The position numbers and the translations under genes were made by a program. Of a stretch of 48,508 nucleotides of DNA, positions 8,899-46,256 are shown one piece after another; the first letter of the stretch is position 1, and each line of letters opens with the position of its first letter. The DNA is from Candidatus Woesearchaeota archaeon (GTDB taxonomy: Archaea > Nanobdellota > Nanobdellia > Pacearchaeales > GW2011-AR1). The notes beneath the pieces were generated by a model. That model made no database searches. It saw only the letters and a list, made by a program, of their open reading frames with translations, and was not told the origin of the DNA. The DNA lies in assembly GCA_964399015.1 (NCBI GenBank), contig CAYNOY010000001.1, positions 1-48,508 of the forward strand. Reading direction: 5' to 3'.

Positions 8899-8978
8899 TT
8901 TTCCGTCGCGAAAAGCCGCTCATGAAATCGCTTTCTCTTTTCGTCCCCTGAATAATGTTATGTTGTCAAGAATTTAAT
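8899..8978 (+). repeat. Family-1 structured intergenic element, copy 1
   Basis: Outer stem CGAAAAG (8909-8915) pairs with CTTTTCG (8937-8943). The tail is ATGTTGTCAAGAATTTAAT. Confidence 0.8.
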
Positions 8979-9102
8979 CGTGAAAGGGTAATTTTTGTTT
9001 ATCGTTTGGAGTTATGATTTATGGAATGAGTTTGAAGGGTTGTGAAGAGGAGTTTTTTTAAAACTTAGAAATATTTAATAACTATCTATTTTTCTATATT
9101 TG

Positions 9103-9507
9103 ATGGATTATAGAATATTATTGATACCTGTTTTGGGATTTATTATTGGTTATTTTACTAATTATCTTGCTATTAAAATGTTATTTTATCCACGGAAAGG
9201 GATTTGGGGTATTCAGGGAATTTTGCCTAGGCAAAGGAAAGAGATTGCTAAGAGGGTTGGTGAAGTTTCTGTTAGATTGTTGCCTTCTGAAGTTTTGAAA
9301 GTTGGAAGGATTCCAATTATTGGTTCTGCAGTTATGGATTACCTTAAGGGTTCTATTGAAAATCAGATTAATTCTCTTTCGTTAGATGAATTGGAGGATA
9401 TTGTTTTCAAGGTTGCTAGGAAAGAATTGAAATTTATTACCTGGATTGGAGGAGTGATTGGGTTTTTGATTGGGTTGGTGCAAGTGGGATTGGTTTTTTT
9501 AGTTTGA
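9103..9507 (+). CDS. DUF445-like membrane protein
   Basis: GYFTNYLAIKMLFYPRK resembles the DUF445 signature. The ORF opens with TTG at 9100; the ATG is at 9103. A TATA-like AATATTTAATA lies about 30 nt upstream. Confidence 0.5.
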   Translation: MDYRILLIPVLGFIIGYFTNYLAIKMLFYPRKGIWGIQGILPRQRKEIAKRVGEVSVRLLPSEVLKVGRIPIIGSAVMDYLKGSIENQINSLSLDELEDIVFKVARKELKFITWIGGVIGFLIGLVQVGLVFLV

Positions 9508-9550
9508 GAACTTTTGTAGAAGTTTGTTTAGGGATTGTGGGATTATGTTA

Positions 9551-10108
9551 TTAATCTTTATTAATAATCCGATATGCTAATACTCCGAAGACTACTAGTA
9601 TTAATAATAATGAAATGAATGTTACGATTTTATTGTCGAAGTTTGTTACGATTCCTTCGAACACTAGGATGCCGCCTGTTGCTAGGCCGGTTATTTGGAT
9701 TAAAAGTTCTTTATAGAATAGGCCTGTTAATAGGAGTGCGAATCCGATGAAGGCTAAGATATAATATCTTATTTGGTTGTAGTCGTCATTTGCTTGTTCC
9801 CAGTCTTCGTTGCATTGATAGTTTCTATCGCAGTATCCGTTTATGATTTCTGGAGTGTCTGGATTGTTTATTGCTCTTGCAGGATATGATTTTCCTTCAG
9901 GGTTCCAATTGCCTCCGATTGCTTCGCATCTTTCTTGAGTTTCAATTATTTCTTGAGTTTTGAATTCTCCGCAAAAGTCATTGTATTCGGGTTTTTCAAG
10001 AAATATGCTTAGACCTACATTTACTAAAGAGACTACTATTACTGTTAAGATAATGCTTACTAAGATTGATAATGCTAGCTTGTTTAGAGATGTTTTCTTT
10101 TTTGGCAT
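9551..10108 (-). CDS. Membrane protein with Cys-rich extracytoplasmic domain, hypothetical
   Basis: An N-terminal transmembrane helix, a Cys-containing middle region, and C-terminal transmembrane helices. Confidence 0.4.
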   Translation of the reverse strand: MPKKKTSLNKLALSILVSIILTVIVVSLVNVGLSIFLEKPEYNDFCGEFKTQEIIETQERCEAIGGNWNPEGKSYPARAINNPDTPEIINGYCDRNYQCNEDWEQANDDYNQIRYYILAFIGFALLLTGLFYKELLIQITGLATGGILVFEGIVTNFDNKIVTFISLLLILVVFGVLAYRIINKD

Positions 10109-10233
10109 GTATTACTTAGGGGTTTTGAGTTTATAATAGTTTTGATAGGTTCTAATTGGTTTGTGGTTATGGGTTGGGGGGATGGTGGATTAGTTGGATT
10201 TGGTTTGGTTGATTGTGTTTGAAGGTATAAATG

Positions 10234-10241
10234 TTTAAATA
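10234..10241 (+). promoter_or_regulatory. TATA box (TTTAAATA) for the leaderless gene at 10263
   Basis: The box starts 29 nt upstream of the ATG. The same ATAAATGTTTAAATAT motif recurs at 10731-10746. Confidence 0.5.
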
Positions 10242-10262
10242 TTCTGATATCTTAAGAAAATT

Positions 10263-10718
10263 ATGGAGATAATTTTAGAGTTTAGGATTCGAAAGATTTA
10301 TGACGGGCCTGTGGGTATGGGAGTTTTAGATGATGCGCCTTCGGTTACTAATCGGCCTCTTAAGAATCTTTTACATTTATTTAATAAGGAAGTAGGGGTT
10401 GAATTTAATTTACCTAGTTCTGAAAGAGAAATAGGTTATGATGTGGAAAGATTTGGTGAAAAACAATCAAAAACTTCTTTGGTTCCTTTGGATTATCCTA
10501 GCAGGGTGGCAGATACGATAGGATATGTTTTTAGGAATCCGAATTTAGAAATTGTTCTTAAAGATTATTTTAAACCTTCTAGTGAGAGAAGTCTTAATGG
10601 GGGAGATATTCATGCAGAAAAGGGAATTGGGTGTAAATTGAATTTTCAAGGGACTTATAAGGAAGGGCAGGTAGTGGAGAAAGCTAGACATGTATTGGAA
10701 GAGTTTTATGGTTCTTAA
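10263..10718 (+). CDS. Hypothetical protein
   Basis: ORF with an upstream TATA box. No family recognised. Confidence 0.45.
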   Translation: MEIILEFRIRKIYDGPVGMGVLDDAPSVTNRPLKNLLHLFNKEVGVEFNLPSSEREIGYDVERFGEKQSKTSLVPLDYPSRVADTIGYVFRNPNLEIVLKDYFKPSSERSLNGGDIHAEKGIGCKLNFQGTYKEGQVVEKARHVLEEFYGS

Positions 10719-10769
10719 TTGGTTTAGTGTATAAATGTTTAAATATATTGATTGTTTTTTGTAAGTTTA

Positions 10770-11297
10770 ATGGCTGTTGATTTGGAAGATTTTAATGTGT
10801 TGCATCAGTATATGAGTCGATGTGTTGAGCTTGGAAGGCTGGCGCCTAACCATCTTAAGAAACCTTATGTTGGTGCGTTAGTTTTGAGGAAGGATGGGAA
10901 GGTTTTGGGTGAGGGTTATAGGAAATTTATTGATGGGACTAAGATGGTTTGTCATGCAGAAAGGGTTGCTATTGATAAGACTGGATTTTATGATTTAAAG
11001 GGGACTTATTTATTTACAACTCTCGAACCTTGTGTTTGGGTTAATGGAGATGAGCGAGGGAATGGGCGAAAGAGAAAGCAAATTATTGAACCTTGTTCTA
11101 AATTGATTGTTGATGAGGGTATTGAGACAGTAGTATTTAGTGAATTGGATAATTCTTTTACTATGAGTCCTGGGACCGGAGTAAATTATCTTAAGGATCA
11201 TGGAGTGAAGGTTATTCAATATGAGGGATTAAGCAGAGAAATTTTGAGTAAACTTATGACGTATGAATGTAGAATCAATAGGGGTTTGCCTGGTTAG
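10770..11297 (+). CDS. Cytidine/deoxycytidylate deaminase-fold protein (RibD-deaminase-like)
   Basis: Zinc-binding motifs CHAERVAI and TLEPC...PC are present, with an insertion between the Cys residues. The ATG at 10770 sits 32 nt after the TTTAAATA box at 10738. The ORF-track TTG at 10752 is probably not the start. Confidence 0.65.
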   Translation: MAVDLEDFNVLHQYMSRCVELGRLAPNHLKKPYVGALVLRKDGKVLGEGYRKFIDGTKMVCHAERVAIDKTGFYDLKGTYLFTTLEPCVWVNGDERGNGRKRKQIIEPCSKLIVDEGIETVVFSELDNSFTMSPGTGVNYLKDHGVKVIQYEGLSREILSKLMTYECRINRGLPG

Positions 11298-11362
11298 TGT
11301 TTGTGGGGGTTTGTTTTTGAGAGGGAATTTGATTAATAAAAAAACTAAGAGATTATAAAATT

Positions 11363-13072
11363 TTAATAATGTATCTTTAATTCATGCCGATTATAATCTG
11401 CTGAAATTTCTTTTAGGTTTGCGACATCTTTTGCATGACGGTCGGGTCTGAGTTTTATTATTCTTGGGAACCTTAATCCAAAACCTGAATTATAGGTTGG
11501 TGACCTTTGGATATTTTGATAAAGAATTGTTACAACTATTTTTGGTTTTATTTCAACTGACCTTCCTTTTTCTTTTGTGATTAGCGGTTTTAGTTTTTTT
11601 GTTAGTTCTGTGAATGATAGTCCGAGTTCTTCTTTTTCTTTTAGGCCAGATGATTTTCCTATTTCTAAGAATTTGTCTTCGTTTGAATTTAGGCATGAAA
11701 GAGTAAATGTTGCAAATGCTCCTGCTCTTCTTCCTTTTCCGTATTCTGCACCTGTGATAACTAGGTCTAGTTCGTTTTCAGCAGGTTTTAATTTTAACAT
11801 GTGTCCGACTCTTGCACCTGGTTGGTATCTTGAATCTAGGTTTTTTATCATGACTCCTTCTTGATTGTCTTTTAATGCTTCTTGGTAAAAGATTTCGGCT
11901 TTTTTTGCATCGCTTGTTATTAATTGGTGGGCAGTTCTTATTTTGTATTTGTAGGGATGGACTAAATCTCTTAATATTTTTGTACGTTCTTTGAATGGTG
12001 TGTTGACTAATTCTTTTCCATTTAAGTAGAGAATATCAAATGCATTTATTTCTACTGGAAGTTTTTTTACTAACATTTCGATGTTGTGTTTTCTTCGGAT
12101 TCTTTGAGAGACTGCTTCAAATGGTTTGTATTTTTTTGTTTTGGGATCAAAGCCAATTGCTTCTGAGTCGATTATGAAAGATTTTGCTTTGATGTGTTCT
12201 TTAATATATTTTATAACTTCTGGGAATTGTTTTGTTACTTCATCAAGTCTTCTTGTGAATATTTTTACAGTTCCTTTTTCGTCTTTGTTAATCATCATTC
12301 TGAATCCGTCATATTTGTATTCAAATATTGCCGGTTTTCCGACACGTTTGAAACCATCTTCGATTGATTCTGCTTTTAGTGCGAGCATTGCTTTTAGTGG
12401 ATTTCCTGGAGTGATTTTTGTTTTTTGAAGTTCGCCTACACCCTTGCAAGCTTTTTCAATAACTGTTGCAAAATCTGCTATTTTGTCATAAGAATCTTGA
12501 ACAGCTTCGGTATTTTCTTTTGTTTTTTCTTTGAAACAGGTTTCGACAATTGAATCTCGGATTGTTCCTGAAGCTACTCCAATTCTTAATTGTCCTAATA
12601 ATGTTCTGATGATATATTTTGCTTCGATTCCCTCTGCAGATGTTAGGAGTTCTGAGATTAGTGAAAGTTTTTTGTCAACGGTTCCTTTTCCAATAAGCTC
12701 TGGAAGTTTTTTTAAATTTAATAATACTTTTTCAGTTGTTAATTTTTTTGTGAAAAGAGTTCCTTGTTTTTTCTTGTTCATTACTTCTTCAGCTACTTGA
12801 CCTAGGTCTCCTATTTTTCTCCATTTGTTTACGATTTCTTTGTTGGGTATTCCTGAAGCTTTTGTTAATGCTTTGATACATAATTGTTCTGAGATGCCGA
12901 ATTCTTTTTCAGAGTAATCTGGATAAACTTTTCCTTGTAGAAGATAGACGATTTCTTTGTCTTTTGATTTTATTATTTCTTTTAGAAGAATTGATAATAT
13001 TTGAGATTTTTTAAGTCTTGATGGGGTTTGCTCTAAATCTTCGTAGACTTCGCAGAGTTTTTTGTATTCCAT
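11363..13072 (-). CDS. lig: ATP-dependent DNA ligase
   Basis: Adenylation motif EYKYDGFR (KxDGxR). The 569 aa length and overall archaeal ligase layout fit. Confidence 0.93.
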   Translation of the reverse strand: MEYKKLCEVYEDLEQTPSRLKKSQILSILLKEIIKSKDKEIVYLLQGKVYPDYSEKEFGISEQLCIKALTKASGIPNKEIVNKWRKIGDLGQVAEEVMNKKKQGTLFTKKLTTEKVLLNLKKLPELIGKGTVDKKLSLISELLTSAEGIEAKYIIRTLLGQLRIGVASGTIRDSIVETCFKEKTKENTEAVQDSYDKIADFATVIEKACKGVGELQKTKITPGNPLKAMLALKAESIEDGFKRVGKPAIFEYKYDGFRMMINKDEKGTVKIFTRRLDEVTKQFPEVIKYIKEHIKAKSFIIDSEAIGFDPKTKKYKPFEAVSQRIRRKHNIEMLVKKLPVEINAFDILYLNGKELVNTPFKERTKILRDLVHPYKYKIRTAHQLITSDAKKAEIFYQEALKDNQEGVMIKNLDSRYQPGARVGHMLKLKPAENELDLVITGAEYGKGRRAGAFATFTLSCLNSNEDKFLEIGKSSGLKEKEELGLSFTELTKKLKPLITKEKGRSVEIKPKIVVTILYQNIQRSPTYNSGFGLRFPRIIKLRPDRHAKDVANLKEISADYNRHELKIHY

Positions 13073-13134
13073 GGGTGCCTCTTTTATGAGTTGTTAAGGT
13101 GGTTTGGGTATATAAATTATTTCCTCTTGAAGTT

Positions 13135-13268
13135 ATTTTCCTCCACCGCAGAAAGCCGGCTTAGAGAATCTTTGATTTTCTAATTCTTCAACTCTCTTTT
13201 GGAGAGTTGAACACTGTCGCCTTTCCCTTTCTGCACCTTGCGAATTGATATGTTGTTAAGAATTTAAT
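13135..13268 (+). repeat. Family-1 structured intergenic element, copy 2 (interrupted by a twin-hairpin module)
   Basis: Outer stem GCAGAAAG pairs with CTTTCTGC. Inner stem GGC pairs with GCC, and its loop carries the 53-nt module. The tail is ATGTTGTTAAGAATTTAAT. Confidence 0.8.
13160..13212 (+). mobile_element. Twin-hairpin insertion module, copy i
   Basis: Sequence CTTAGAGAATC-TTT-GATTTTCTAA TTC TTCAACTCTC-TTTT-GGAGAGTTGAA. The other eight family-1 copies lack it at this position. Confidence 0.6.
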
Positions 13269-13374
13269 TGAGAGTTAGTAGTTTTGGTTTTGTTAGAAGA
13301 TTTATTCGTGGAGGGAATAGTTTTTTATTTTGGAGCATCTAAATATTTATAATCTTTGTAGATTTTTTGTATGA

Positions 13375-13803: not shown

Positions 13804-13808
13804 TAAAA

Positions 13809-14381: not shown

Positions 14382-14472
14382 ATTTTATTGTACTAAAGTT
14401 CGTTTAAAAACCTAACGATTGGTGATTTTTGCGATTAATTTAGGTCAATCGATATTCCCTTGGAATATTATA

Positions 14473-14547
14473 TGAGCCTGCCAAGATTTGAACTTGGGAC
14501 CCCTACCTTATCAGAGTAGTGCTCTGACCTGGCTGAGCTACAGGCTC
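14473..14547 (-). tRNA. tRNA-Ile (anticodon GAU)
   Basis: On the minus strand the acceptor arms are GAGCCTG and CAGGCTC. The D arm is GCTCAGCCAGGTCAGAGC. The anticodon loop is CTGATAA. The T arm is CCAAGTTCAAATCTTGG. Confidence 0.9.
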
Positions 14548-14592: not shown

Positions 14593-15279
14593 TTATTTTC
14601 CTTCTAATTCTATGACTAGATTCCCGTCAACAAGGTCGTATGCTTTTACAGGTAAATTCATGTTAAGTGTTTTAGAATAAACTTTGTCTTTCCCGATGGC
14701 TTTTATTTCAATGCAACTTTCTAATTGATTGATGAAAATATCTTCGATGTTTTTGACTCCTGGAACTTGGAGGTTGTACATTACTTTTCCAGATAATCTT
14801 CTGACTTGGGATTTAGGTTCGACTTTTGGAAGTTTAGCTAACAATTTCATTTTTTCTTTTGATAGTTCTTTTTGAGGAGCTTGTGGTTTTTGAGTTGGAT
14901 TAATTTCAGGGTTATTTGTTGGATTGACTGGTTTGCCGTTAACAAGGAATTGAACGTTCATGCCTCTGCGAGGTTGTTCTTGGGGGTTTCTATTTTGATT
15001 TACAGAATTTTCCATTTGTTTTTCAATCATTTTGATCATTGAGGGTAATTCTTTCATTGCGCCTTTTAGTATTTTTCCTATTGGAAGTCCGCCCATTAAT
15101 CCTCCTAAGTTTATGTTTTCTAAAAAGTCTGGTTCTTTTGGTTTGATAGCGTCATTTTTTCCTAATAGGCCGTAATCTTTTTCATCAAACTGGGATTTTA
15201 AATTAGCTCCGCAATTAGGACAGAAGTCATAATTTTTTTTGAGGGGGTTGTTACACTTAGAACATTTTTGATTAAACAT
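14593..15279 (-). CDS. Zinc-ribbon protein with C-terminal beta-rich (HSP20-like?) domain
   Basis: The N-terminus has CSKCNNPLKKNYDFCPNCG. The C-terminal assignment is tentative. Confidence 0.45.
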   Translation of the reverse strand: MFNQKCSKCNNPLKKNYDFCPNCGANLKSQFDEKDYGLLGKNDAIKPKEPDFLENINLGGLMGGLPIGKILKGAMKELPSMIKMIEKQMENSVNQNRNPQEQPRRGMNVQFLVNGKPVNPTNNPEINPTQKPQAPQKELSKEKMKLLAKLPKVEPKSQVRRLSGKVMYNLQVPGVKNIEDIFINQLESCIEIKAIGKDKVYSKTLNMNLPVKAYDLVDGNLVIELEGK

Positions 15280-15310: not shown

Positions 15311-15376
15311 ATGTTCGTATGGAACCTACGGTTTCCTTACAAGTCACCCTCCCTCTAGTAGCTTCCTTCGGAGAAG
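15311..15376 (-). repeat. Family-3 leader element, proximal tandem copy
   Basis: Minus-strand sequence: CTTCTCCGAAGGAAG hairpin, then GCTACTAGAGGGAGGGTGACTTGTAAGG, then the GAAACC-GTA-GGTTCC hairpin. The element ends about 30 nt before the ATG at 15279. Confidence 0.7.
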
Positions 15377-15390
15377 TATCTTTTGATTGA

Positions 15391-15458
15391 ATGTTCGTAT
15401 GGAACCTACGGTTCCCTTACAAGTCACCCTCCATTTAGTAGCTTCCTTCGGAAGTTTA
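15391..15458 (-). repeat. Family-3 leader element, distal tandem copy
   Basis: Offset by 80 nt from the proximal copy. It carries the CTTCCGAAGGAAG and GGAACC-GTA-GGTTCC hairpins. Confidence 0.7.
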
Positions 15459-15636: not shown

Positions 15637-16293
15637 ATGGATCAAGAAGAATTATTGAAAAAGTATGGTATAGACTTGGAAGTGCTAGAGAAGGAGCAGA
15701 TGAAATTGGCTAAGAATTTGAAGTTGAAGGATAAAATTGATTTTTCTCTTGTTGAAACTTATGGGGCGATTGATAATATTTTTATTGGGAATAAAATGCT
15801 TTCTTGTGTGATTGTTTGTGATAAGAATTTTGAGATTTTGGATAGAGCTTATGTTTTGGATAAGGTGAAGTTTCCTTATTTGGCGGGATTTAGGAATTAT
15901 CGGGAGCTTGAGTCAATGATTAAAGCTTTTGAGAAATTGAATGAGAAGCCAGATGTTTTGTTTATTCAGGGTCATGGGATTTCACATCCGCGTTTGGGGC
16001 TTGCGAGTCATTTTTCTCTTTCGACAGGAGTTCCAACAATTGGTGTTAGTAATTCTTTGGCTGATGCAGAAGTGAAGAAAGATGATGTTTTGATAGGTGA
16101 TAAAAAGGTTGGGAAAGTGTTAATAAGTAAAGAAGGGAGTAACCCAATGTATATAAGTCCTGGAAACTTAATAACTATAGATAATTCGTATAAATTTGCT
16201 AAGGATTTGATTCGTTTGCCCCATAAAAGGCCTGAACCGATTCATTTAGCGTCGAAGTATGCGAAAAAAGTAAAAAAAGAATTAGCTCTCTGA
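15637..16293 (+). CDS. nfi: Endonuclease V
   Basis: PDVLFIQGHGISHPRLGLASHFSLSTGVPTIGVSNS matches the EndoV core. Confidence 0.85.
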   Translation: MDQEELLKKYGIDLEVLEKEQMKLAKNLKLKDKIDFSLVETYGAIDNIFIGNKMLSCVIVCDKNFEILDRAYVLDKVKFPYLAGFRNYRELESMIKAFEKLNEKPDVLFIQGHGISHPRLGLASHFSLSTGVPTIGVSNSLADAEVKKDDVLIGDKKVGKVLISKEGSNPMYISPGNLITIDNSYKFAKDLIRLPHKRPEPIHLASKYAKKVKKELAL

Positions 16294-16490: not shown

Positions 16491-16593
16491 TTTAACTTTT
16501 TATTTTTTTTATTTTTATGTGTTTATTTTTTTGATGGTGGGTGGTGAAAGGTTTTGGAGGGGGGGAGGGTGGTGAAGGGTTTTTTGGAGATAT

Positions 16594-16733
16594 AGTTTGT
16601 TTGGAACAAACGAAAGTTTATTTTATGTCAGATTGGGAAGACGGAGTCTAACCCAATCTTCTAGTTTCTCAGAGAATTAAAAATTCTCTGATCCTTCAAG
16701 AGGTAGTGCTCTTGAAGTTATTGATAGTTTGTG
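16594..16733 (+). repeat. Family-2 two-hairpin element, copy A (interrupted by a twin-hairpin module)
   Basis: Hairpin 1 is GTTTGTT:AACAAAC. It is followed by AAAGTTTATTTTATGTCA. Hairpin 2 is GATTGGG..CCCAATC. The element ends TTCTAGTTT[module]TATTGATAGTTTGTG. Confidence 0.75.
16669..16717 (+). mobile_element. Twin-hairpin insertion module, copy ii
   Basis: Sequence TCAGAGAATT-AAAA-AATTCTCTGA TC CTTCAAGAG-GTAGTG-CTCTTGAAG. It is absent from the equivalent site in family-2 copies B and C. Confidence 0.6.
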
Positions 16734-16769
16734 AATTTTTGGGATTATGAAATAAGTTTGGAAATAATA

Positions 16770-16855
16770 TGCACCATGCGGCTTAGAGAATCAAAGATTC
16801 TCTAATCCTTCAACTCTTTTTTTGAGAGTTGAAGTTAATTGAACCCGCGTCTAAA
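16770..16855 (-). pseudogene. Duplicated tRNA-Gly 3' portion with its T-loop interrupted by a twin-hairpin module
   Basis: Minus-strand sequence TTTAGACGCGGGTTCAATTAA[module]GCCGCATGGTGCA. It repeats the last ~33 nt of the adjacent tRNA-Gly. No 5' half is present. Confidence 0.6.
16782..16834 (+). mobile_element. Twin-hairpin insertion module, copy iii
   Basis: Sequence CTTAGAGAATC-AAA-GATTCTCTAA TC CTTCAACTC-TTTTTTT-GAGAGTTGAAG. By eye it is about 80% identical to copy i. Confidence 0.6.
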
Positions 16856-16863: not shown

Positions 16864-16934
16864 TGCACCATGCGGGAATCGAACCCGCGTCTAAACCTTG
16901 GGAAGGTTTTATTCTACCACTATACCAATGGTGC
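16864..16934 (-). tRNA. tRNA-Gly (anticodon CCC)
   Basis: On the minus strand the acceptor arms are GCACCAT and ATGGTGC. The anticodon stem-loop is AAACC-TTCCCAA-GGTTT. The T arm is GCGGGTTCGATTCCCGC. The discriminator base is A. Confidence 0.85.
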
Positions 16935-17016: not shown

Positions 17017-18462
17017 ATGGCTAATAAGAAAAAGTTTTATGTTACGACTCCGATATATTATGTTAATTCGGAACCTCATGTTGGGTCTGCTTATACGACT
17101 ATAGCTGCAGATATTTTTGCGAGATGGCATAGGCTTTTGGAAGAGGATGTTTATTTTTTGACTGGGACAGATGAGCATGGTCAGAAGATTCAAGAGTCTG
17201 CTGAAAAGAAGGGGGTTAGTCCTAAGAAGTTTGTTGATGAGATTTCTGGGAAGTTTAAGAAAGTTTTTGAGGATTTGAATATTTCTAATGATGATTTTAT
17301 TAGGACGACTGATAAGGATCATGAGAAGGCTGTTCAGGATATTTTGCAGAAGCTTTATGATAAGAAGTTGATTTACAAGGGCGAGTATGAGTCTTATTAT
17401 TGTGTTGGTTGTGAGCAGTATTTGAATAAGGGGGATTTGGTTGATGGAAAGTGTGTTTTGCATAAGACAGAGCCTGAGAAGGTTAAGGAAGAGTCTTATA
17501 TGTTTAAGCTATCGAGTTTTGAGGATAAGCTTTTGAAGTTGATTAAGAGTGGAAAGTATGAGATACTTCCCTTGAAAAAAAGGAACGAGGTTGTTTCTTT
17601 TATCGAGAGTGGTTTGAATGATATTTCTATTTCAAGGAAAAAGTCTAAGGTTAGTTGGGGAATTGAGTTGCCTTTTGATAAGGTGCATACTTGTTATGTT
17701 TGGGTTGATGCTTTTTGGAATTATTTGAGTGGATTGAGAACTCCTGCGAATCATAAAAAGTTTTGGTCGCCTGATTTGCAGTTGATGGCGAATGATATTT
17801 TGAGAGTTCATGCTACGATTTGGCCGGCGTTACTTTTGGGATTGAATATTGATTTGCCGAAGACTTTGTTTATTCATGGATATTTTACAGTTAATGGGCA
17901 GAAGATGAGTAAGTCTTTGGGTAATGTTGTTTCTCCGGAATATCTTATTGATAAATATGGTGCAGATTCTTTGAGGTATTTTATAATTAGAAATATTCCA
18001 TTTGGAGATGATGGGGATTTTTCAGAAGAGACTTTGAAGGATAGGCATAACAATGAGTTGGCGAATAAGTTGGGGAATTTGGTTAGTAGGATTTGTGGAT
18101 TGGTTGAGAGAAACGGAGTTGAGAAGTGCGATAAGTTGTTGAAGAAATTGCATTTGAAAAAGATTACTGGATTGATTGATAATTATGAATTGGATAAGGC
18201 GTTGAATGAGATTTTTGCTTTTATTGATGTTTGTAATGAATATGTTCAGAATAAGAAACCCTGGGAGACTAAAGATGGGAAGGTTTTGTATGAGGTGGTT
18301 GATTCGATTAAAGCTATTGCAATTTTGCTTTGGGCGTTTATGCCGGAGACTTGTGAGAAGATTGCGAAGCAGATGAAGTTTAAGTTAGAGTTGGATGAGA
18401 TTGATAAGCCGATAAAAGTAAAATCTATAAAGAAGGGTGAGATTTTATTTGAGAAGGTTTGA
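17017..18462 (+). CDS. metG: Methionyl-tRNA synthetase (short form, no C-terminal tRNA-binding domain)
   Basis: The HIGH-type motif is EPHVGSAY and the KMSKS motif is QKMSKSLGN. A zinc knuckle CVGCEQY..CVLH is present. The protein is 481 aa. Confidence 0.93.
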   Translation: MANKKKFYVTTPIYYVNSEPHVGSAYTTIAADIFARWHRLLEEDVYFLTGTDEHGQKIQESAEKKGVSPKKFVDEISGKFKKVFEDLNISNDDFIRTTDKDHEKAVQDILQKLYDKKLIYKGEYESYYCVGCEQYLNKGDLVDGKCVLHKTEPEKVKEESYMFKLSSFEDKLLKLIKSGKYEILPLKKRNEVVSFIESGLNDISISRKKSKVSWGIELPFDKVHTCYVWVDAFWNYLSGLRTPANHKKFWSPDLQLMANDILRVHATIWPALLLGLNIDLPKTLFIHGYFTVNGQKMSKSLGNVVSPEYLIDKYGADSLRYFIIRNIPFGDDGDFSEETLKDRHNNELANKLGNLVSRICGLVERNGVEKCDKLLKKLHLKKITGLIDNYELDKALNEIFAFIDVCNEYVQNKKPWETKDGKVLYEVVDSIKAIAILLWAFMPETCEKIAKQMKFKLELDEIDKPIKVKSIKKGEILFEKV

Positions 18463-18466
18463 GGTT

Positions 18467-18545
18467 ATTTCCGTCCCGCAGAAAGCCGGTTGTCACCTTT
18501 CCCCTTTCTGCTCCTTGCATATTATTATGCTGTCAAGAATTTAAT
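18467..18545 (+). repeat. Family-1 structured intergenic element, copy 3
   Basis: Outer stem GCAGAAAG:CTTTCTGC and inner stem GGT-TGTC-ACC. The tail is ATGCTGTCAAGAATTTAAT. It begins 5 nt after the metG stop codon. Confidence 0.8.
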
Positions 18546-18587
18546 TGAGGGGTTTGATTGGTTCATTTTGTTTTGAGAGATTATTGT

Positions 18588-21982: not shown

Positions 21983-22040
21983 GTTAGGAGTGGGTTTTAT
22001 ATCGAATTGGGGTGGAGAGGTTATTTGATTTGAGTTGTTG

Positions 22041-22112
22041 TTCTCCCCCTGCAGAAAGCCGGTTTCACCTTTTCCTTTCTGCTCTCCAATAACTGTTAGT
22101 GTATAAATTTTA
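22041..22112 (+). repeat. Family-1 structured intergenic element, copy 4 (divergent tail)
   Basis: Outer stem GCAGAAAG:CTTTCTGC and inner stem GGT-TTC-ACC. The tail is replaced by GTGTATAAATTTTAG. Confidence 0.7.
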
Positions 22113-22177
22113 GTATAGTGGTTAGAGGGTTTTATGATTTGTGGAAGGTGTTTAGCGTTTATGAAGATGAGTTTTCT

Positions 22178-22513: not shown

Positions 22514-22556
22514 TATTATGTTAATGAGTGGATGTTATTAAATGTTTTTGTTTGGT

Positions 22557-24667: not shown

Positions 24668-24742
24668 TAAGATTAATAGAGGTTTAGAATTAATAATCTT
24701 TGTTGTGATTGAATTTTCTTTGTGGAAATTGAGATGTGTTGT

Positions 24743-24818
24743 TTTGCGCCACCGCGAAAGGCCGTGCTCGCACTTTTCCCTTTCGCCCTCAATTACTGAT
24801 ATGGTTAAAATTTTATAA
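24743..24818 (+). repeat. Family-1 structured intergenic element, copy 5 (divergent tail)
   Basis: Outer stem GCGAAAGG:CCTTTCGC and inner stem GTGC-TC-GCAC. The tail is GGTTAAAATTTTATAAG. Confidence 0.7.
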
Positions 24819-24823
24819 GTTCA

Positions 24824-25599: not shown

Positions 25600-25670
25600 G
25601 TTGATTTGAGGATTGGGGAGTTTTTAAGGTTTTTGGGTGTTGGAAGTGGAGGGTTATTTGGTGAAGGTTG

Positions 25671-25749
25671 TTTTCCTCCGCCGCGAAAGGCCGTGCTCGC
25701 ACTTTCCCCTTTCTGCTCCTTGTAGGAATTATGTTGTCAAGAATTTAAT
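25671..25749 (+). repeat. Family-1 structured intergenic element, copy 6
   Basis: The outer stem GCGAAAGG:CCTTTC(T)GC has one bulge. The inner stem is GTGC-TC-GCAC. The tail is ATGTTGTCAAGAATTTAAT. Confidence 0.8.
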
Positions 25750-25785
25750 TGTGGAAAGGGATTAATTGAGGAGGCATGTAAAAAT

Positions 25786-30272: not shown

Positions 30273-30334
30273 TGTTAGGGTTTTTGGAAGAATGGTTTTT
30301 GAAGATGTTTAGGTTTAAGGTTTGATTAGGGTGT

Positions 30335-30418
30335 ATTCCTCCTCCGCGAAAATCCGTTCCTTATGTCACTTTCCCATTTTCGCCCCGTTGTATATTATTA
30401 TGTTGTCAAGAATTTAAT
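30335..30418 (+). repeat. Family-1 structured intergenic element, copy 7
   Basis: The outer stem is GCGAAAAT:ATTTTCGC. The tail is ATGTTGTCAAGAATTTAAT. Confidence 0.8.
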
Positions 30419-30465
30419 TTGGTTATTTGGTTTCTTTAGGATTTGAATGGATTGGGTTCGAAACG

Positions 30466-35260: not shown

Positions 35261-35272
35261 TTTTTGAGAGAT

Positions 35273-35356
35273 AGTTCGCTTCGCGAAGATTTTATTTTAT
35301 GTCAATTTGGGAGGGCGTAGCCCAACCCAAATTTCTAATTTTATTAATAGTGTTGT
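35273..35356 (+). repeat. Family-2 two-hairpin element, copy B
   Basis: Hairpin 1 is TTCGC:GCGAA. It is followed by TTTTATTTTATGTCA. Hairpin 2 is ATTTGGG..CCCAAAT. The element ends TTCTAATTTTATTAATAGTGTTG. It starts 13 nt after the rpoL stop codon. Confidence 0.75.
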
Positions 35357-36324: not shown

Positions 36325-36356
36325 TGAAGGGTGTTGTAAATTTTATTTTGGGTTGT

Positions 36357-36435
36357 ATTTCCTCCTCCGCGAAAGGCCGGCTTACGCCTTTCCCCTTTCG
36401 CTCCGGGCATATTGATAGGTTATCAAGAATTTAAT
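36357..36435 (+). repeat. Family-1 structured intergenic element, copy 8
   Basis: Outer stem GCGAAAGG:CCTTTCGC and inner stem GGC-TTAC-GCC. The tail is GGTTATCAAGAATTTAAT. Confidence 0.8.
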
Positions 36436-36487
36436 AAAGAGGTTTAGTCACATAATATTTAAATAGTTTCTTTGGGTTGAATATTCT

Positions 36488-37959: not shown

Positions 37960-38058
37960 GTTTGTTAGAGGGGGTGAGATGTTATAAATGTTTTTGGCTA
38001 GTTTAGAAACAAATAAAAACTAGGTAAGCGTGGGTAAAATAAGAAGGGAGGTGATTGA

Positions 38059-38241: not shown

Positions 38242-38277
38242 TTAGTTTGTTTTTTTTGTTTTTGTTTTTTTATATTT

Positions 38278-38367
38278 AGTTCGCTTCATAGAAGCGAAAG
38301 TTTATTTTATGTCAAAATGGGGGGACGAGTCCGACCCATTTTTCTAATCTTATTGAAAGTGTGTTGG
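38278..38367 (+). repeat. Family-2 two-hairpin element, copy C
   Basis: Hairpin 1 is TTCGCTTC:GAAGCGAA. It is followed by AAAGTTTATTTTATGTCA. Hairpin 2 is AAATGGG..CCCATTT. The element ends TTCTAATCTTATTGAAAGTGTGTTG. Confidence 0.75.
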
Positions 38368-41572: not shown

Positions 41573-41619
41573 AATTTAATTTAGAGATGATGGGTATAAA
41601 AATGTTTTGAGAAGAATTT

Positions 41620-42222
41620 TTAAATCTCAATTATGCTTCCTTTTTTTCCAACGCTGACTACTTTTGTTTTTCCTATTTTTTCGCTTAAGCCTTCTGCTTC
41701 GTGAATGTGTCCTGAAATGAATAAGTCTGGTTGTAATTCATCGATTGCTTTTCTAAGTTCTTTGCTTCCTGCAATTCCAGAGAATTCTGATTTGGTTCCT
41801 GCAGGATTTATATGACTAACCATTATTTTCTTTTCTAGATCTTTAATTTTTTCAAAGTCTTTTTTTAATTTCTTGAAGGTTTTTTTATTATCTATATCAA
41901 AGGACCAATCTGGAGAGCCTATGCCAAAGATTCCTACATCTTGGTATTTGACATAATGATCTCCAACATTTTTTATTCCATAGAGTTTTGTTAAAAAATC
42001 TGCTACTTCTGAGCTTTCCCAATTTCCTGGAACAAAAACTACTTTTTTTCCCTTGTCAATAAATGGTTTTAGAATGTTTTCGGTTTCAATTGCCCCAGTA
42101 ATATCTCCTGCTAAAACTACTAAGTCGACTTTTTCTTTTTCTGCTTTTTCAGCTAATTTTTTGCTTGCTGAAGAGTCTCCATGGAAATCAGATGCTGCAA
42201 GTATTTTGAATTTTTTAGTCAT
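41620..42222 (-). CDS. Metallophosphoesterase (calcineurin-like)
   Basis: ILAASDFHGD, LAGDITG, GNWES and SGHIHE motifs are present. Confidence 0.75.
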   Translation of the reverse strand: MTKKFKILAASDFHGDSSASKKLAEKAEKEKVDLVVLAGDITGAIETENILKPFIDKGKKVVFVPGNWESSEVADFLTKLYGIKNVGDHYVKYQDVGIFGIGSPDWSFDIDNKKTFKKLKKDFEKIKDLEKKIMVSHINPAGTKSEFSGIAGSKELRKAIDELQPDLFISGHIHEAEGLSEKIGKTKVVSVGKKGSIIEI

Positions 42223-42316
42223 AGATTTAAGAATAAGCTTGGATATTTAAAGTTTCTTCTCATTAGATATTATGTATCATAAATAAATTTAAGAATGTTT
42301 TTTGCTAGGTAATATC

Positions 42317-42973
42317 ATGAATTCATGGATGAAAGAGGGGTTAGTTCTTTTGGCGTTGAGTGTGCCTTATGCAGGATGTTCTAGACAACCTGATCCCCCT
42401 AGACTTCCAACTCCAAATGAATTGAGTGCATTGAGAGAATTGAATGAGGGGTTGAGGGATAAATATGAGGATTTGGAGAAAGATTATAGTAAACTTGAGG
42501 AGAAATCTGGTAAAATTAATGATGACAATTGGATTAGAAGTAAACAGATAAAAAGTTTGACTCTTGAATTAAATACTCGGAAAATTATTGCTGAAAGATT
42601 TTTAGTGAGTAAGAGAATTGATACTGCAAATCATGATATAAGGATATTGGAAGCGTTGAATAAAATTGGTAAATATGAAGATGTTTTGCAGAGAAATGGA
42701 TTTGATTCTATATTGATTGCGGAGGGTCATGGAGATTTGGGTCCTACAGAATTTGAAAATTTAAGATTAAGATATGAAAGGGATCAAATCTGTTGGGATC
42801 AGCAAACACTTAGGTTTGATAAAACTCGAAGGGGTTTTGGGCTTGAACTTGAAAGAACTAAAGATAAAAATGCTGAGTTAAGGCATGAGTTGGATGCCTA
42901 TAAGAAATATTATCAAGAGGCTGAAGTTTGGATTAGAGAACGTCAACCTAGTAAGAATCCTTTGAGGGATTGA
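42317..42973 (+). CDS. Coiled-coil lipoprotein-like protein (paralogue of 43020..43439)
   Basis: MNSWMKEGLVLLALSVPYAGCS is signal- or lipobox-like, followed by coiled coil. The ORF-track start is the TTG at 42302. Confidence 0.45.
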   Translation: MNSWMKEGLVLLALSVPYAGCSRQPDPPRLPTPNELSALRELNEGLRDKYEDLEKDYSKLEEKSGKINDDNWIRSKQIKSLTLELNTRKIIAERFLVSKRIDTANHDIRILEALNKIGKYEDVLQRNGFDSILIAEGHGDLGPTEFENLRLRYERDQICWDQQTLRFDKTRRGFGLELERTKDKNAELRHELDAYKKYYQEAEVWIRERQPSKNPLRD

Positions 42974-43019
42974 TTTGTTCTATAGATATATTTAAAAAGG
43001 TATTTACTTCTATAGAGTA

Positions 43020-43439
43020 ATGAAATCTTGGATGAAATCTGGATTAATTGCAATGGTATTAGCTGTGCCTTTTGTAGGTTATTCTATAAGGTCGAATTCA
43101 CAGATGCAAGAAATTCAAAATTTGAAAAATGAATTTGGGGAATTAAGCTGTGAGAATGTTATACTTGAGGAGAAATATGCTATTCTTGAAGAAGAGCACC
43201 TAGCATTGGAGGTTCGATATGGTGGGGTTTCAAAATCTGGAAAATATAAAGAAAGAAAAATAAAATGGTTAGAATTTCAGAAAAAGGTTTTGAGTGGTCT
43301 TGGGGAAAAAATTTTAGAGAGAATGAAAACTAGACGTGAGAATTCTAGGTTGGCTAGATTGAAATTACAAAGAGAATTAGACACATTGAAATTAAAATAT
43401 GATAAAGATGCATCTAATTGGGAAATGCAGGAAGTTTAA
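43020..43439 (+). CDS. Coiled-coil secreted protein (paralogue of 42317..42973)
   Basis: MKSWMKSGLIAMVLAVPFVGYS parallels the N-terminus of its neighbour. Confidence 0.45.
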   Translation: MKSWMKSGLIAMVLAVPFVGYSIRSNSQMQEIQNLKNEFGELSCENVILEEKYAILEEEHLALEVRYGGVSKSGKYKERKIKWLEFQKKVLSGLGEKILERMKTRRENSRLARLKLQRELDTLKLKYDKDASNWEMQEV

Positions 43440-43566
43440 TTTCAAGAAATAAGGAAAAGTTATGAGGTTGAAAATATGAGCTTAGAGGATGAACTTAAAG
43501 CGTATCAGGCTTTGGATTAATTAAATTATTTTATTTTTTTAAGTTCTGTATACTTATTTAGGGTAT

Positions 43567-44865
43567 CTAGGGTTTTCTAGATGTAACCTTTCCTTGGATA
43601 ATTTTAAATTTTGTGTAGGGCAATAAAGCTTTTGGAATTTTTATTGAGCCGTCTTTTTGTTGGTTGTTTTCTATGATTGCTACTAGTGCTCGTGATGTTG
43701 CGATGACTGTATTGTTTAGAGTGTGGGCGAAATAGTTTTTTTTACCGTCACTGATTTTTATTCCCAATCTTCTTGCCTGAGCTTCTTCCATGTTTGTTAA
43801 AGAGGTTATTTCAAAATATTCTTTTCGTCTTGGGGACCATGCCTCTAAGTCACAAGATTTTGCTTTTAGATCTGCTAAATCTCCTGAACAACATTCTAAA
43901 ACTCTGAATGGAATTTCTAGTTCTTTGAAAATTCCTACGCTAAAGTTTAACATTTTGTCATACCATTTGTATGAATCTTCTGGTTCGCAGATTACAATCA
44001 TTTCTTGTTTGTTAAATTGATGTGTTCTGTAAATTCCTTTTTCATCAATTCCGTGTGAACCTATTTCTTTTCTGAAGCACATTGAATAACCGGTTTGTAA
44101 AACTGGTAGTTCTTTTTTTTGTAGGGCTTTGTTTATGAATTGTCCGATTAAAGGATGTTCTGATGTTGCGATTAAGTAGGCATCTTCTCCTTCGACTTTG
44201 TATGCCATTGCATTGATTTCTGCAGTTGAATAAACTCCATCTAAAACTTCTTTTTTTATCATTAATGGGGGTTCAACATAGATGAATTCTTTTTTTACCA
44301 TATAATCTCTTGCGAAATTTATTAAGGCCATATTTAATAATGCTAATTCTCCTTTTAGGAAATAGAATCCTTTTCCTGAAATATCTGCAGAGGTGTCAAA
44401 GTCTAGGAGTCTTAATGATTCTCCTAACTCTACATGACTTTTTACATCGAAGTTGAATTTTGGAATCTGACCATATTTTTTTATCTCAACATTTTCTTTA
44501 TCTGATTTTCCAATAGGAACTGATTTATGAATTATGTTGGGAATTTTCATTATTATGATTTTTACTTCTTCTGCTAATTTGTCTGCTTTTTCTTCTATCT
44601 TTTTTATTTTTTCAGGGATGTCTCCGGCTTGTTTGATTAATGTCTTAGCTAACTTTTCGTCTTTTGTTTTTTTAGCTTTACTAATTTCTAAAGAAATTTT
44701 ATTTCGCTCACTTCTTAATTCGTCAACCTGATATTTTAGTTTTCTCCACTGTTCGTCTAATTTTTTTGCTTTATCTACTAATGGGAGCTTTTCATCTTGG
44801 AATTTCTTTTTTATATTTTCTTTTACTAAGTCTGGATTTTCTCTAATTAGTTTTATGTCTATCAT
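43567..44865 (-). CDS. serS: Seryl-tRNA synthetase
   Basis: The N-terminus MIDIKLIRENPDLV, a coiled-coil arm, and class II core motifs (FRKEIGSHG, TLNNTVIATSR). The start is placed at the ATG at 44865 rather than the ORF-track TTG at 44880. Confidence 0.92.
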   Translation of the reverse strand: MIDIKLIRENPDLVKENIKKKFQDEKLPLVDKAKKLDEQWRKLKYQVDELRSERNKISLEISKAKKTKDEKLAKTLIKQAGDIPEKIKKIEEKADKLAEEVKIIIMKIPNIIHKSVPIGKSDKENVEIKKYGQIPKFNFDVKSHVELGESLRLLDFDTSADISGKGFYFLKGELALLNMALINFARDYMVKKEFIYVEPPLMIKKEVLDGVYSTAEINAMAYKVEGEDAYLIATSEHPLIGQFINKALQKKELPVLQTGYSMCFRKEIGSHGIDEKGIYRTHQFNKQEMIVICEPEDSYKWYDKMLNFSVGIFKELEIPFRVLECCSGDLADLKAKSCDLEAWSPRRKEYFEITSLTNMEEAQARRLGIKISDGKKNYFAHTLNNTVIATSRALVAIIENNQQKDGSIKIPKALLPYTKFKIIQGKVTSRKP

Positions 44866-44880
44866 ATCGTTTGTATCCAA

Positions 44881-44958
44881 GGCACCAAGGTTCCTTAGAT
44901 GTATCCTCCCTTGAGATTACAAGTCATCTTCCCTCTAATAGCTTCCTTCGGAAGTTTA
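44881..44958 (-). repeat. Family-3 leader element upstream of serS
   Basis: On the minus strand: AAACTTCCGAAGGAAGCTATTAGAGGGAAGATGACTTGTAA, then a 23-nt insertion, then GGAACCTTGGTGCC. The element ends 15 nt before the serS ATG. Confidence 0.7.
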
Positions 44959-45053
44959 TCATGTTCAGATAATTGTCTATATTTAATAATAACTTAAGAA
45001 ATTAGTATTATTTAAAGTTTCTTCTAAACATTTAAATATTAGTTTTTTGTTTT

Positions 45054-45674
45054 ATGTGTAAGATGGTGAATCAAAAAGTTTTGATAAGAGATAAATATCG
45101 ACGGCATAAAAAAGTTTTTGTTTTTTTGGTGATAATGATATTGTTGGTTGTGACTATTTTGGTGATTTTTTTAATGGGATATTTATCTAAGGATGTAACG
45201 AATCAGATTGTTATTGAGAATCCTTTGAAAGGTCTTGTTTTTGCAAATACTAATGAGGCTGGGCAGGTTGATAAACAAGCAGTTGTTGAGCAGGCAGTAT
45301 TGGAATTTGATGCAGACTATATTAATTTTATTTTGTTTGCTTTAGGAATTGATAATCTTCATAAATCTTATGTGGGTTATGGGAATCCGGTGGTGGAGTT
45401 ACAAGTTGATAATGAAATTTGGTCTTCGGAGATTGATGGCGGTTTGTTGAATACTGCTCGTGTGGCTAATGCTGAAAAAGATTTAAAAATAACTATGAGT
45501 CGTCTGGAGGCTGTTGAGGCACTTTTGTCTTCGGATATAAATTTATTTATGAAAACTTCGGTGACAAATGGAAATACTCAAATAGAAATGGTTGCTAATA
45601 AGGTTGAGTTGGGTAGTAAGGGTTACTTGGCAATGTATAAGACGATTACTGGTGAAGAGATTTCTGCGGAGTGA
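45054..45674 (+). CDS. Membrane-anchored hypothetical protein
   Basis: ORF with one N-terminal transmembrane helix. Confidence 0.4.
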   Translation: MCKMVNQKVLIRDKYRRHKKVFVFLVIMILLVVTILVIFLMGYLSKDVTNQIVIENPLKGLVFANTNEAGQVDKQAVVEQAVLEFDADYINFILFALGIDNLHKSYVGYGNPVVELQVDNEIWSSEIDGGLLNTARVANAEKDLKITMSRLEAVEALLSSDINLFMKTSVTNGNTQIEMVANKVELGSKGYLAMYKTITGEEISAE

Positions 45675-45808
45675 TTGGTTAGTAATGATTTGTTGGTACT
45701 CAAAAATTAAGTAACTTGGATTTGTTACTGTTTGGTTAAATTTTTGTTACGAAACCTTTATAAGCGAATATATGACTTAAATATATAGATTGAAATGAGT
45801 ACATAAAA

Positions 45809-46102
45809 ATGTACGCATTGAATCATATAAACAAAATGAAAGATAATTTTGACATTTTTTTCCGCAGAAAGCCAGCATTAATGTTAGTAGCTTTAAGGAA
45901 ATTATCAAAGGCTCGATACGGTTCTGTATTAGCTAAAGAAGTAGACTGTACTTATTCGCATGCAGTCAAAATTTTGCAAACTCTAGAAGAACTAGGTTTA
46001 GTGAAGTTTGAAAAGAAAGGGCGAATAAAGTTGATAGAACTTACAAAGAAGGGTGAAGAGATTGCAGAACATATTGACCAGATAAAGAGAACCATAAACT
46101 AA
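45809..46102 (+). CDS. Small winged-helix transcription regulator
   Basis: YGSVLAKEVDCTYSHAVKILQTLEELGLVKFEKKGRIKLIELTKKG fits a wHTH (ArsR/MarR-like) fold. Confidence 0.55.
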   Translation: MYALNHINKMKDNFDIFFRRKPALMLVALRKLSKARYGSVLAKEVDCTYSHAVKILQTLEELGLVKFEKKGRIKLIELTKKGEEIAEHIDQIKRTIN

Positions 46103-46173
46103 TCCTTTTTTTATTTTTAGTTTTTTAATTGCTTAGATAGATTTAGCTTGTTTTGGATAAGAGTTTTGAGTTA

Positions 46174-46256
46174 TTTTCCGCCACCGCAGAAATCCGGTTT
46201 CACCTTTCCCATTTCTGCTCCTTGTATATTGATATTGTTGAATATAAATATTAATA
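46174..46256 (+). repeat. Family-1 structured intergenic element, copy 9 (divergent tail)
   Basis: Outer stem GCAGAAAT:ATTTCTGC and inner stem GGT-TTC-ACC. The tail is GTTGAATATAAATATTAATAA. Confidence 0.75.

Follow-up and report, generated by a model that had tools for sequence, protein, structure and literature searches.

A strand-polar family of nested-hairpin elements in the intergenic DNA of a Pacearchaeales archaeon

Why does a short hairpin element recur between the genes of an archaeal chromosome approximately once every 5 kb, and always in the same direction? The question is raised by 48,508 nt of DNA from a Candidatus Woesearchaeota archaeon (assembly GCA_964399015.1, contig CAYNOY010000001.1, positions 1 to 48,508 of the forward strand), and this whole stretch is referred to below as the window. 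The element is ~85 nt in length and is present in nine copies within the 48.5 kb, all of them intergenic, which constitutes a large investment for a host with little non-coding DNA. The copies had been picked out in a first-pass annotation made from the sequence alone, which described them as co-oriented, as folding into two nested stems and as carrying an A/T-rich box. The answer favoured here, to which a probability of approximately 0.4 is assigned, is that the copies form a family resembling REP sequences and other miniature repeats, which would be handled as single-stranded DNA (ssDNA) and would for that reason be strand-polar.

Detection and folded structure of the element

A covariance model (R1) was built from the nine window copies, and every position of the window was scored against it with the filters off. 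The scan returned exactly nine matches in a single orientation at 53-95 bits, with the runner-up at 15.6 bits, and the copies were thereby re-found where they had first been placed. The 19-mer ATGTTGTCAAGAATTTAAT, which closes the element, occurs six times in the window with up to two mismatches, always on the + strand, and 0.1 occurrences are expected from shuffles. An independent repeat search of the window also recovered the element, as the repeat families D1-D4, D6 and D14. Chance similarity or an assembly artefact has a negligible probability as an explanation and is refuted. Chance is contradicted by the distance in score between the copies and the runner-up and by the shuffle expectation for the 19-mer, and an artefact is ruled out because identical copies are carried by independent NCBI, JGI and ENA assemblies.

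Read on the + strand, the element opens with GTT(G/A)T-TTTCC-N-CC-N-CC, followed by an 8-bp outer arm, CC and an inner stem-loop with a stem of 2-4 bp and a loop of 3-12 nt. It continues with TTTCC(C), the outer 3' arm, YCC(T)TG, ~12 A/T-rich nt and finally the 19-mer, referred to here as the box. The hairpin is nested, with an asymmetric 6/2-nt purine/pyrimidine internal loop, and the 19-mer lies ~15 nt from it. Six of the nine window copies (1, 2, 3, 6, 7 and 8) have the canonical 19-mer; copies 4, 5 and 9 have perfect stems and no canonical box. The G+C content of the element is 0.35-0.48, compared with 0.34 for the window.

Covariation was measured on an alignment of ten related copies that was made by, and hence fitted to, the model. 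Within this alignment 93.6% of the cells are standard pairs, compared with 42-51% in controls whose 3' partners were displaced by 1-3 columns. Changes on both sides occur in 6/11 pairs, and the observed covariation score was reached by none of 500 shuffles. Covariation extends to both stems, the outer of 8 bp and the inner of 2-4 bp, as had been claimed, and the same two helices are predicted by RNAalifold; the stem variants first listed for the individual copies are correct on re-reading. Part of the outer-stem "covariation" reflects concerted changes in which an A:T pair is lost as a G:C pair is gained, with the stem held at 8 bp. The folding energies of single copies are modest relative to shuffles (z -3.1 to +0.2, with copy 8 at -3.1), so the case for structure rests on covariation and not on energy. 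Selection on a folded single strand, either RNA or ssDNA, and not only on primary sequence is supported by these results. As to which strand is folded, wobble pairs provide a single informative cell, the outermost pair of copy 1, which is G.T on the + strand and A.C on the minus strand.

The individual copies are described from left to right, and the strand of each, taken as the orientation of the model match, is (-) throughout. Copy 1 (8894..8982, 68.3 bits) lies in the divergent gap between an FKBP/SlyD-like gene (-) and a DUF445 gene (+), with the outer stem CGAAAAG:CTTTTCG at 8909-8915 / 8937-8943, next to which the wobble pair lies, and the box at 8960-8978. Copy 2 (13130..13272, 89.5 bits) occupies the divergent gap between the DNA ligase gene (-) and a 142-aa gene (+); its outer stem is at 13148-13155 / 13227-13234, its inner stem is formed by GGC at 13158-13160 and GCC at 13219-13221, and its box is at 13250-13268. 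This copy is present as first described, except that its extra length is a nested insertion of another repeat family. Copy 3 (18462..18549, 87.5 bits) follows the stop codon of the MetRS gene (+) between convergent genes, with an outer stem at 18478-18485 / 18504-18511, an inner stem of GGT and ACC at 18488-18490 / 18495-18497 and a box at 18527-18545. Copy 4 (22032..22118, 75.4 bits) is located between an HD-domain gene (+) and a convergent 111-aa gene (-), with its outer stem at 22051-22058 / 22075-22082 and its inner stem at 22061-22063 / 22067-22069.

Copy 5 (24736..24821, 71.4 bits) lies between two tandem minus-strand genes and has a diverged box; its outer stem is GCGAAAGG:CCTTTCGC (24754-24761 / 24779-24786) and its inner stem is GTGC:GCAC. 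Copy 6 (25665..25753, 78.1 bits), upstream of a Sec61-beta-like gene (-), has its outer stem at 25683-25690 / 25708-25716 and its box at 25731-25749. It is a mosaic that combines the 5' arm GCGAAAGG with the 3' arm CCTTTCTGC, so that one base bulges from the outer stem. The left half of the mosaic shares 91% identity with copy 5 (family D4), and the right half matches copies 3 and 9. Copy 7 (30328..30422, 85.1 bits) is found between the aRF1 (+) and ScpB (+) genes, with the outer stem GCGAAAAT:ATTTTCGC at 30346-30353 / 30376-30383 and the box at 30400-30418. The top-scoring copy is copy 8 (36350..36439, 95.4 bits), downstream of a RadB-like gene (+), with an outer stem at 36369-36376 / 36394-36401, the inner hairpin GGC-GTAA-GCC at 36379-36388 and a box at 36417-36435. 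Copy 9 (46168..46259, 79.5 bits) separates a winged helix-turn-helix (wHTH) gene (+) from a 106-aa gene (+) and has the outer stem GCAGAAAT:ATTTCTGC at 46186-46193 / 46211-46218.

Orientation, strand bias and lineage restriction

All nine window copies are co-oriented although the flanking genes use both strands, as first proposed, and two further copies on other contigs of the same population follow the same rule, so that 11/11 copies have the model orientation on the A+C-rich strand. With regard to a strand link of the IS200/IS605 type, all 11 copies occupy the same strand relative to the skew, on DNA that offered no skew switch point at which a flip could be seen. Copies 1, 2, 5 and 6 are located 84, 63, 76 and 72 nt 5' of minus-strand ATG codons, and copies 3, 4, 7, 8 and 9 are located 5, 59, 63, 33 and 72 nt past + strand stop codons; both sets of distances agree with the original description. 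The gaps are divergent for copies 1 and 2, convergent for copies 3 and 4 and tandem, on either strand, for copies 5-10, and copy 11 has a divergent gene on one flank and a convergent gene on the other. This placement is that expected from random intergenic positions with a fixed chromosomal orientation, and the orientation follows the chromosome strand, not the neighbouring genes. Such a polarity would provide a built-in marker of replication direction for an uncultured lineage.

The placement bears directly on one alternative, in which the hairpin is an intergenic RNA structure within ordinary mRNAs (a 3' stabiliser, a terminator/insulator or a processing site) that is read in the sense of the neighbouring gene. 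Nine of the 11 copies are downstream of at least one gene able to read into them, with stop codons 5-72 nt away, and bacterial REPs have such roles (PMC3479197). This alternative is nevertheless improbable: copies 1 and 2 lie between divergent genes, where there is no mRNA 3' end, the divergent share of 2/11 equals the random-placement expectation, and the strict chromosomal co-orientation is left unexplained. Archaeal transcription termination relies on oligo-U tracts, and the hairpin has no oligo-U tract attached.

Homologues of the DNA ligase place the organism among the Pacearchaeota/Nanoarchaeia-type DPANN archaea, with the nearest non-self ligase 79% identical. The housekeeping context of the copies was confirmed by Pfam, which identified MetRS, the HD-domain protein, aRF1, the RadB-like protein, FKBP and the wHTH protein, as well as NAC, the Sec61-beta-like protein, ScpB, a type IA topoisomerase and seryl-tRNA synthetase (SerRS) among the further genes of the window. 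The composition of the window is 38% T, 27% A, 22% G and 13% C. At third codon positions, read on the + strand, the frequencies of G and C are.30 and.026 in + strand genes and.18 and.078 in minus-strand genes. Intergenic DNA has a C frequency of.10 on the + strand, unconstrained spacers are nearly C-free, and the strand bias does not track gene orientation. The elements are C-rich islands on this C-depleted + strand and are G-rich and purine-rich on the minus strand. Minority substitutions among the copies comprise 16 C>T and 15 T>C changes; because C>T is not dominant on the + strand, the C content of the element is maintained, by selection or homogenisation, and is not decaying. The co-occurrence of the family with an exceptionally strong, gene-independent strand bias offers a test case for how the exposure of ssDNA at the replication fork shapes both composition and mobile DNA.

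Two other features of the window concern its composition. The stretch at 4-6 kb (~4001-6000) has a reversed skew of -0.27 and encodes a Bro-N domain protein (4891-5781), and it looks recently acquired. The pair of open reading frames (ORFs) at 10752-11297 / 15637-16293 comprises a cytidine/dCMP deaminase-family ORF, with an AID/APOBEC-like Pfam match below threshold, and an endonuclease V gene; any link between these genes and the depletion of C on one strand is speculation.

The distribution of the family was examined in relatives represented by four syntenic loci (L040, L049, L050 and L051; ~75 kb), in which the ligase is 77-79% identical. A scan of this ~75 kb with R1, a step suggested by the first-pass annotation, found no copy, and in L040, the sole relative scanned for repeats, no analogous repeat family was found. 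The relatives also exhibit a much weaker G/C skew than the window. When compared with 185,579 species (one genome each), the 19-mer gave single chance matches in unrelated bacteria only. A gapped pattern of stem and box, run on metagenome contigs, matched four JGI contigs of the same population and gave two chance matches, and two scans of viral contigs gave chance matches only. Among the JGI contigs, L043 carries copy 2 and L047 carries an identical copy 6, and a tenth copy, found on L045 and L048, has the stem GCGAAAAG:CTTTTCGC and its model orientation again on the A+C-rich strand. Contig L053 overlaps the right end of the window and carries copy 9 together with an eleventh, degenerate copy (L053:322-472), in which an insertion of ~66 nt splits the 5' arm. 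The family is confined to one population among the contigs scanned and, to judge from these comparisons, is lineage-specific.

Polarity, skew and distribution together bear on whether the element is a polar cis signal of replication on an exposed single strand, such as a site of lagging-strand initiation or fork processing, tied to the extreme strand bias. It would consist of a hairpin and an entry box for RNA polymerase or another protein, comparable to plasmid single-strand origins and the mitochondrial light-strand origin (OriL) and promoter (LSP). The single-strand origins of rolling-circle plasmids and OriL are orientation-dependent hairpins active on the displaced strand, and the element resembles them in being a polar hairpin whose replicon is strongly asymmetric (G+T/A+C). 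Every copy is co-oriented with the skew, the relatives have neither the family nor the extreme G/C skew, and the spacing of ~1-10 kb is fairly regular. If the box initiated transcription, the G+T-rich strand would serve as template and RNA synthesis would proceed against a rightward fork, in the direction of lagging-strand synthesis; the product would be purine-rich and its template pyrimidine-rich. Even so, this explanation is very unlikely. The predicted sawtooth of neutral-site skew between elements is not seen, as the G/C skew at third codon positions (GC3 skew) goes from 0.80 to 0.90 in + strand genes where the priming model predicts a fall, and is flat in minus-strand genes. The three tRNA genes would all be head-on to replication, no copies are located at 1-8.9 kb or 36.4-46.2 kb, and the replicons with single-strand origins or OriL have one or few sites, not approximately one per 5 kb. 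The archaeal primase is not known to need specific sites. If the explanation were true, the archaeal chromosome would have long-lived single-stranded intermediates and would be mitochondrion-like or plasmid-like.

Promoter potential and comparison with known elements

The first-pass annotation had read the box on the minus strand as a TATA element at the usual distance from a transcription start. The host promoter motif was learned from 45 upstream regions; it is AAAACATTTAAAATTT-like, unusually uniform (e.g., 22514-22556 and 37960-37995) and ends 18-20 nt before the ATG, so most mRNAs appear to be leaderless. Each gene beside an element has its own promoter motif, and the minus-strand genes 3' of copies 1, 2, 5 and 6 have their own TATA at the normal leaderless distance. 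Six window copies bear the canonical box; scored against the host motif on both strands, it stays between -0.2 and 3.4 bits in five of these copies, and in copy 8 it attains 5.8 bits on the minus strand. For comparison, the median is 5.5 bits for real promoters and -0.8 bits for random 32-nt windows, whose 90th percentile is 4.1 bits. The 19-mer features a TATA-like core, CAATTAAATTC, near to the tRNA-Ile promoter CTTATAAATTC, and is without the AAAA that resembles a B recognition element (BRE). Its most conserved part, TTGACAACAT, sits where archaeal promoters usually vary. The minus-strand promoter claim is thus doubtful, given a box near background, without BRE-like AAAA, beside genes that have promoters of their own; a promoter role for the canonical copies is possible, not supported.

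The related statement that every copy has such a box, of one form in most copies, is borne out to the extent that the canonical 19-mer is present in 6/9 copies, and fails for copy 9. There the "divergent box" is the promoter of the + strand gene for the 106-aa protein (46280-46600), with the motif at 46245-46260 scoring 7.5 bits on the + strand. The gap between this motif and the ATG at 46280 is 19 nt, the gene starts 21 nt past copy 9, and it is also called by the JGI and ENA annotators.

These results weigh on a further alternative, that each copy is transcribed in its own right as a small unit of the minus (A+C-rich) strand, with the ATTAAATT core as its TATA box. Initiation ~7 nt ahead of the stem (~19 nt past ATTAAATT) would yield a purine-rich RNA with a 5'-terminal nested hairpin, either a small RNA (sRNA) or an antisense/upstream transcript. 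If the box is taken as a promoter, the host spacing rule predicts initiation at the G of GCAAGG, 7 nt ahead of the stem, and the likeness of the core to the tRNA-Ile promoter is in keeping with this. The unpaired minus-strand segments (GGAGC, GGGGAAAGG and GG-N-GG-N-GGAAAA) are purine-rich, as in structured RNAs, and are retained against the mutational bias, and the G+C content of the element is above that of the window. All three tRNA genes seen share one orientation, and the module inserted in copy 2, described below, has the same sense as the related modules in tRNA fragments. The alternative is doubtful, however, in view of the low promoter score of the box and its lack of BRE-like AAAA, and conservation is highest in the interval that separates the putative TATA from the putative start. 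Copies 4, 5 and 9 keep their stems without the box, and the A/T motif of copy 9 serves the + strand gene. Direct reading of the minus strand found no oligo-T run after the hairpin that could act as a terminator, and half of the transcripts would be antisense into essential genes. The family is not conserved in the relatives, and its many copies would still need a dispersal mechanism. If the elements were RNA genes, they would form an unusually high-copy archaeal sRNA family.

Coding readings of the element were rejected on both strands. On the minus strand an ATG is found at the predicted start in only 3/11 copies, in differing frames; on the + strand, the reading of the 19-mer as ATG TTG TCA AGA ATT TAA has no promoter before it and loses its ATG in copy 8. 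A search of the window with Rfam release 15 at gathering thresholds returned two tRNAs and nothing else, and permissive searches returned nothing at E<=10 for copy 8 and nothing at E<=1 for the whole window, which bears out the earlier statement that the element belongs to no described RNA family. Inspection of the copies led to the rejection of a C/D box or H/ACA sRNA, as boxes C (RUGAUGA) and D (CUGA) are not present, and of a resemblance to group II domain V. A K-turn, which calls for tandem sheared G.A pairs, was rejected because GGGAAA faces GG in the internal loop and GA does not occur on its 3' strand, and a bulge-helix-bulge splice site because there are no staggered 3-nt bulges.

The favoured reading, that of a REP-like family handled as ssDNA, would make the copies lineage-specific short dispersed intergenic repeats and an archaeal counterpart of bacterial REPs and miniature non-autonomous elements. 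The copies would have spread, and would still be recognised, as single-stranded nucleic acid, most likely as the G+T-rich strand at times when the replication fork exposes it as template for the lagging strand. They may be acted on in trans by an enzyme whose gene lies elsewhere in the genome, as IS200/IS605 ends and REPs are by HUH/Y1 enzymes, and the 19-mer may be the protein-recognition or cleavage-proximal part. Such handling would account for selection on pairing over sequence, for strict co-orientation with the replication-associated strand bias whatever the neighbouring genes and for a high copy number restricted to one lineage, with mosaic and nested copies. The dynamics of a repeat family are visible in copy 6, which is a recombinant of two subfamilies, and in copies 2 and 11, which contain nested insertions; whatever the present role of the element, its spread to at least 11 unrelated intergenic sites requires some copying mechanism. 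From this pattern we infer mobility, an ssDNA substrate and an enzyme. Strand-specific, replication-coupled handling of hairpin ssDNA is established for IS200/IS605 (PMC6006769, PMC5027513). REP-type hairpin repeats and their ssDNA enzymes are described for Bacteria, and a selected, strand-polar DPANN family would extend them to Archaea.

Several results weigh against this reading. Pfam identified no transposase, integrase or HUH protein (including RAYT) in the 48.5 kb, and the REP-associated subclasses of Y1 enzymes have not been found in Archaea (PMC6006769). Neither a target-site duplication nor a conserved target motif accompanies the copies, and their ends are not sharp, with similarity fading into the flanks; each copy contains a single hairpin, not two subterminal ones, and they never form inverted doublets. 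No pair of filled and empty sites was found in the relatives, as the neighbour of copy 4 is non-orthologous in L040 and divergence of the intergenic sequence 5' of the ligase gene is too great for an alignment. The sequence of the element looks selected or homogenised, not like decaying junk, which points to a function at the level of the host or of RNA besides, or in place of, mobility.

Among described elements, REPs and REPINs offer the closest likeness, as the element is a short imperfect palindrome with pairing kept across copies, is strictly extragenic at one copy per several kb, and has subfamilies inside one genome with compensatory changes that preserve the hairpin. Subfamilies within a genome and hairpin-preserving compensatory changes are known for REPINs (PMC3116915), and REPs are believed to be the single-stranded substrates of a Y1 HUH enzyme (PMC6006769, PMC3479197). 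The element differs from them in having no GTAG/GTGG tetranucleotide beside the hairpin, where the flank is CC-N-CC on the + strand and GG(A/G)G on the minus strand, and in its single, directly oriented copies, without inverted doublets or dispersed inverted copies. Its archaeal host, the extra conserved 19-mer and the nested hairpin with an asymmetric internal loop are further differences.

The ends of IS200/IS605 elements are likewise hairpins recognised on one strand, and both terminal inverted repeats and target duplications are lacking (PMC6006769, PMC5027513). These elements have two different subterminal hairpins and a fixed tetra- or pentanucleotide target, whereas the element has one nested hairpin per copy, no fixed flanking oligonucleotide and no tnpA in the 48.5 kb. 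Archaea do carry IS200-type transposases. A classical miniature inverted-repeat transposable element was rejected, since the inverted repeat is internal, the ends are unlike (a C-rich lead-in and an A/T 19-mer) and the flanks have no consistent direct repeat. The flank words TTGAG and ACAAC, which were considered as a target-site duplication, recur because neutral DNA here is G/T-only (or A/C-only), and they reflect this composition. On balance, the element would appear to function most like REPs/REPINs or IS200-type hairpin ends, yet it is a member of neither.

Two other systems exhibit partial likeness. Promoter-carrying intergenic repeats, such as the Correia elements of Neisseria and the repeats of halovirus HF2, are also dispersed and have an A/T-rich motif with promoter potential. 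The HF2 repeats take the orientation of the genes they drive (PMC8707807), whereas the element keeps its orientation whatever the neighbouring genes, which are served by promoters of their own, and its box is a poor match to the host motif. Integron attC sites resemble the element as co-oriented imperfect palindromes that are recombined as single strands in folded form, with structure conserved above sequence. The element differs in that there is no integrase, no cassette array and no GTTRRRY core seen, and the copies are separated by 1-10 kb of DNA with housekeeping genes on both strands. The features that are new to the element are the archaeal host, the complete strand polarity, the nested hairpin with its asymmetric purine/pyrimidine loop and the attached 19-mer.

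Other small repeats in the window

At least three further families of small structured intergenic repeats are found in the window, each of them co-oriented. The first is a two-hairpin module, which forms the nested insertion in copy 2. It is located in the apical loop of that copy (13160..13212, (-)), is ~53 nt in length with two hairpins predicted, and is 87% identical to 16779-16833 (family D18). Sites of the module at 13160-13212, 16668-16740, 16779-16833, 48327-48388, 48447-48508 and L053:365-430 are co-oriented and share a layout composed of hairpin A, (G/A)AT and YAGAGAAT..ATTCTCTRAG, usually followed by CC. The module is also found in the T loops of tRNA-Gly and tRNA-Lys gene fragments, and a related insertion is present in the 5' arm of copy 11. 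These positions suggest that its insertion is aimed at hairpin loops, in which case the genome would possess some machinery or process by which small hairpin elements are inserted, always in the same orientation, into such loops.

The tRNA fragments are extra 3' pieces, each composed of the T arm and the 3' strand of the acceptor. They are located at 16770-16852, 3' of tRNA-Gly (16864-16934), and from 48314-48508 on to L053:913-1155, 3' of tRNA-Lys (L053:840-912). One or two such pieces, copied from the tRNA in question, directly follow each of these two intact tRNA genes, and the two-hairpin module splits every piece at its T loop; those that follow tRNA-Lys make up two 120-nt tandem units that are 97% identical. 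Possible origins of the pieces are att-site duplication, repair after insertion or a tRNA-derived mobile unit.

The second family, D5, is a 62-nt repeat (15311-15372, 15391-15452 and 44891-44952) with a CTTCC-GAA-GGAAG hairpin on the minus strand and no Rfam match. It is found in the 5' leaders of two minus-strand genes, in tandem before the zinc-ribbon gene (14593-15279) and once before the seryl-tRNA synthetase gene (43567-44880), and is a candidate cis-regulatory leader in a genome that is otherwise leaderless.

The third family, D8/D17, is represented by three co-oriented copies (16581-16667, 35261-35341 and 38265-38351), each composed of a covarying hairpin, AAAGTTTATTTTATGTCA and a nested covarying hairpin, GATTGGG..GAC-GGA-GTC..CCCAATC. 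On the + strand, AAAGTTTATTTTATGTCA matches the host promoter motif well. The architecture of this family resembles that of the main hairpin element.

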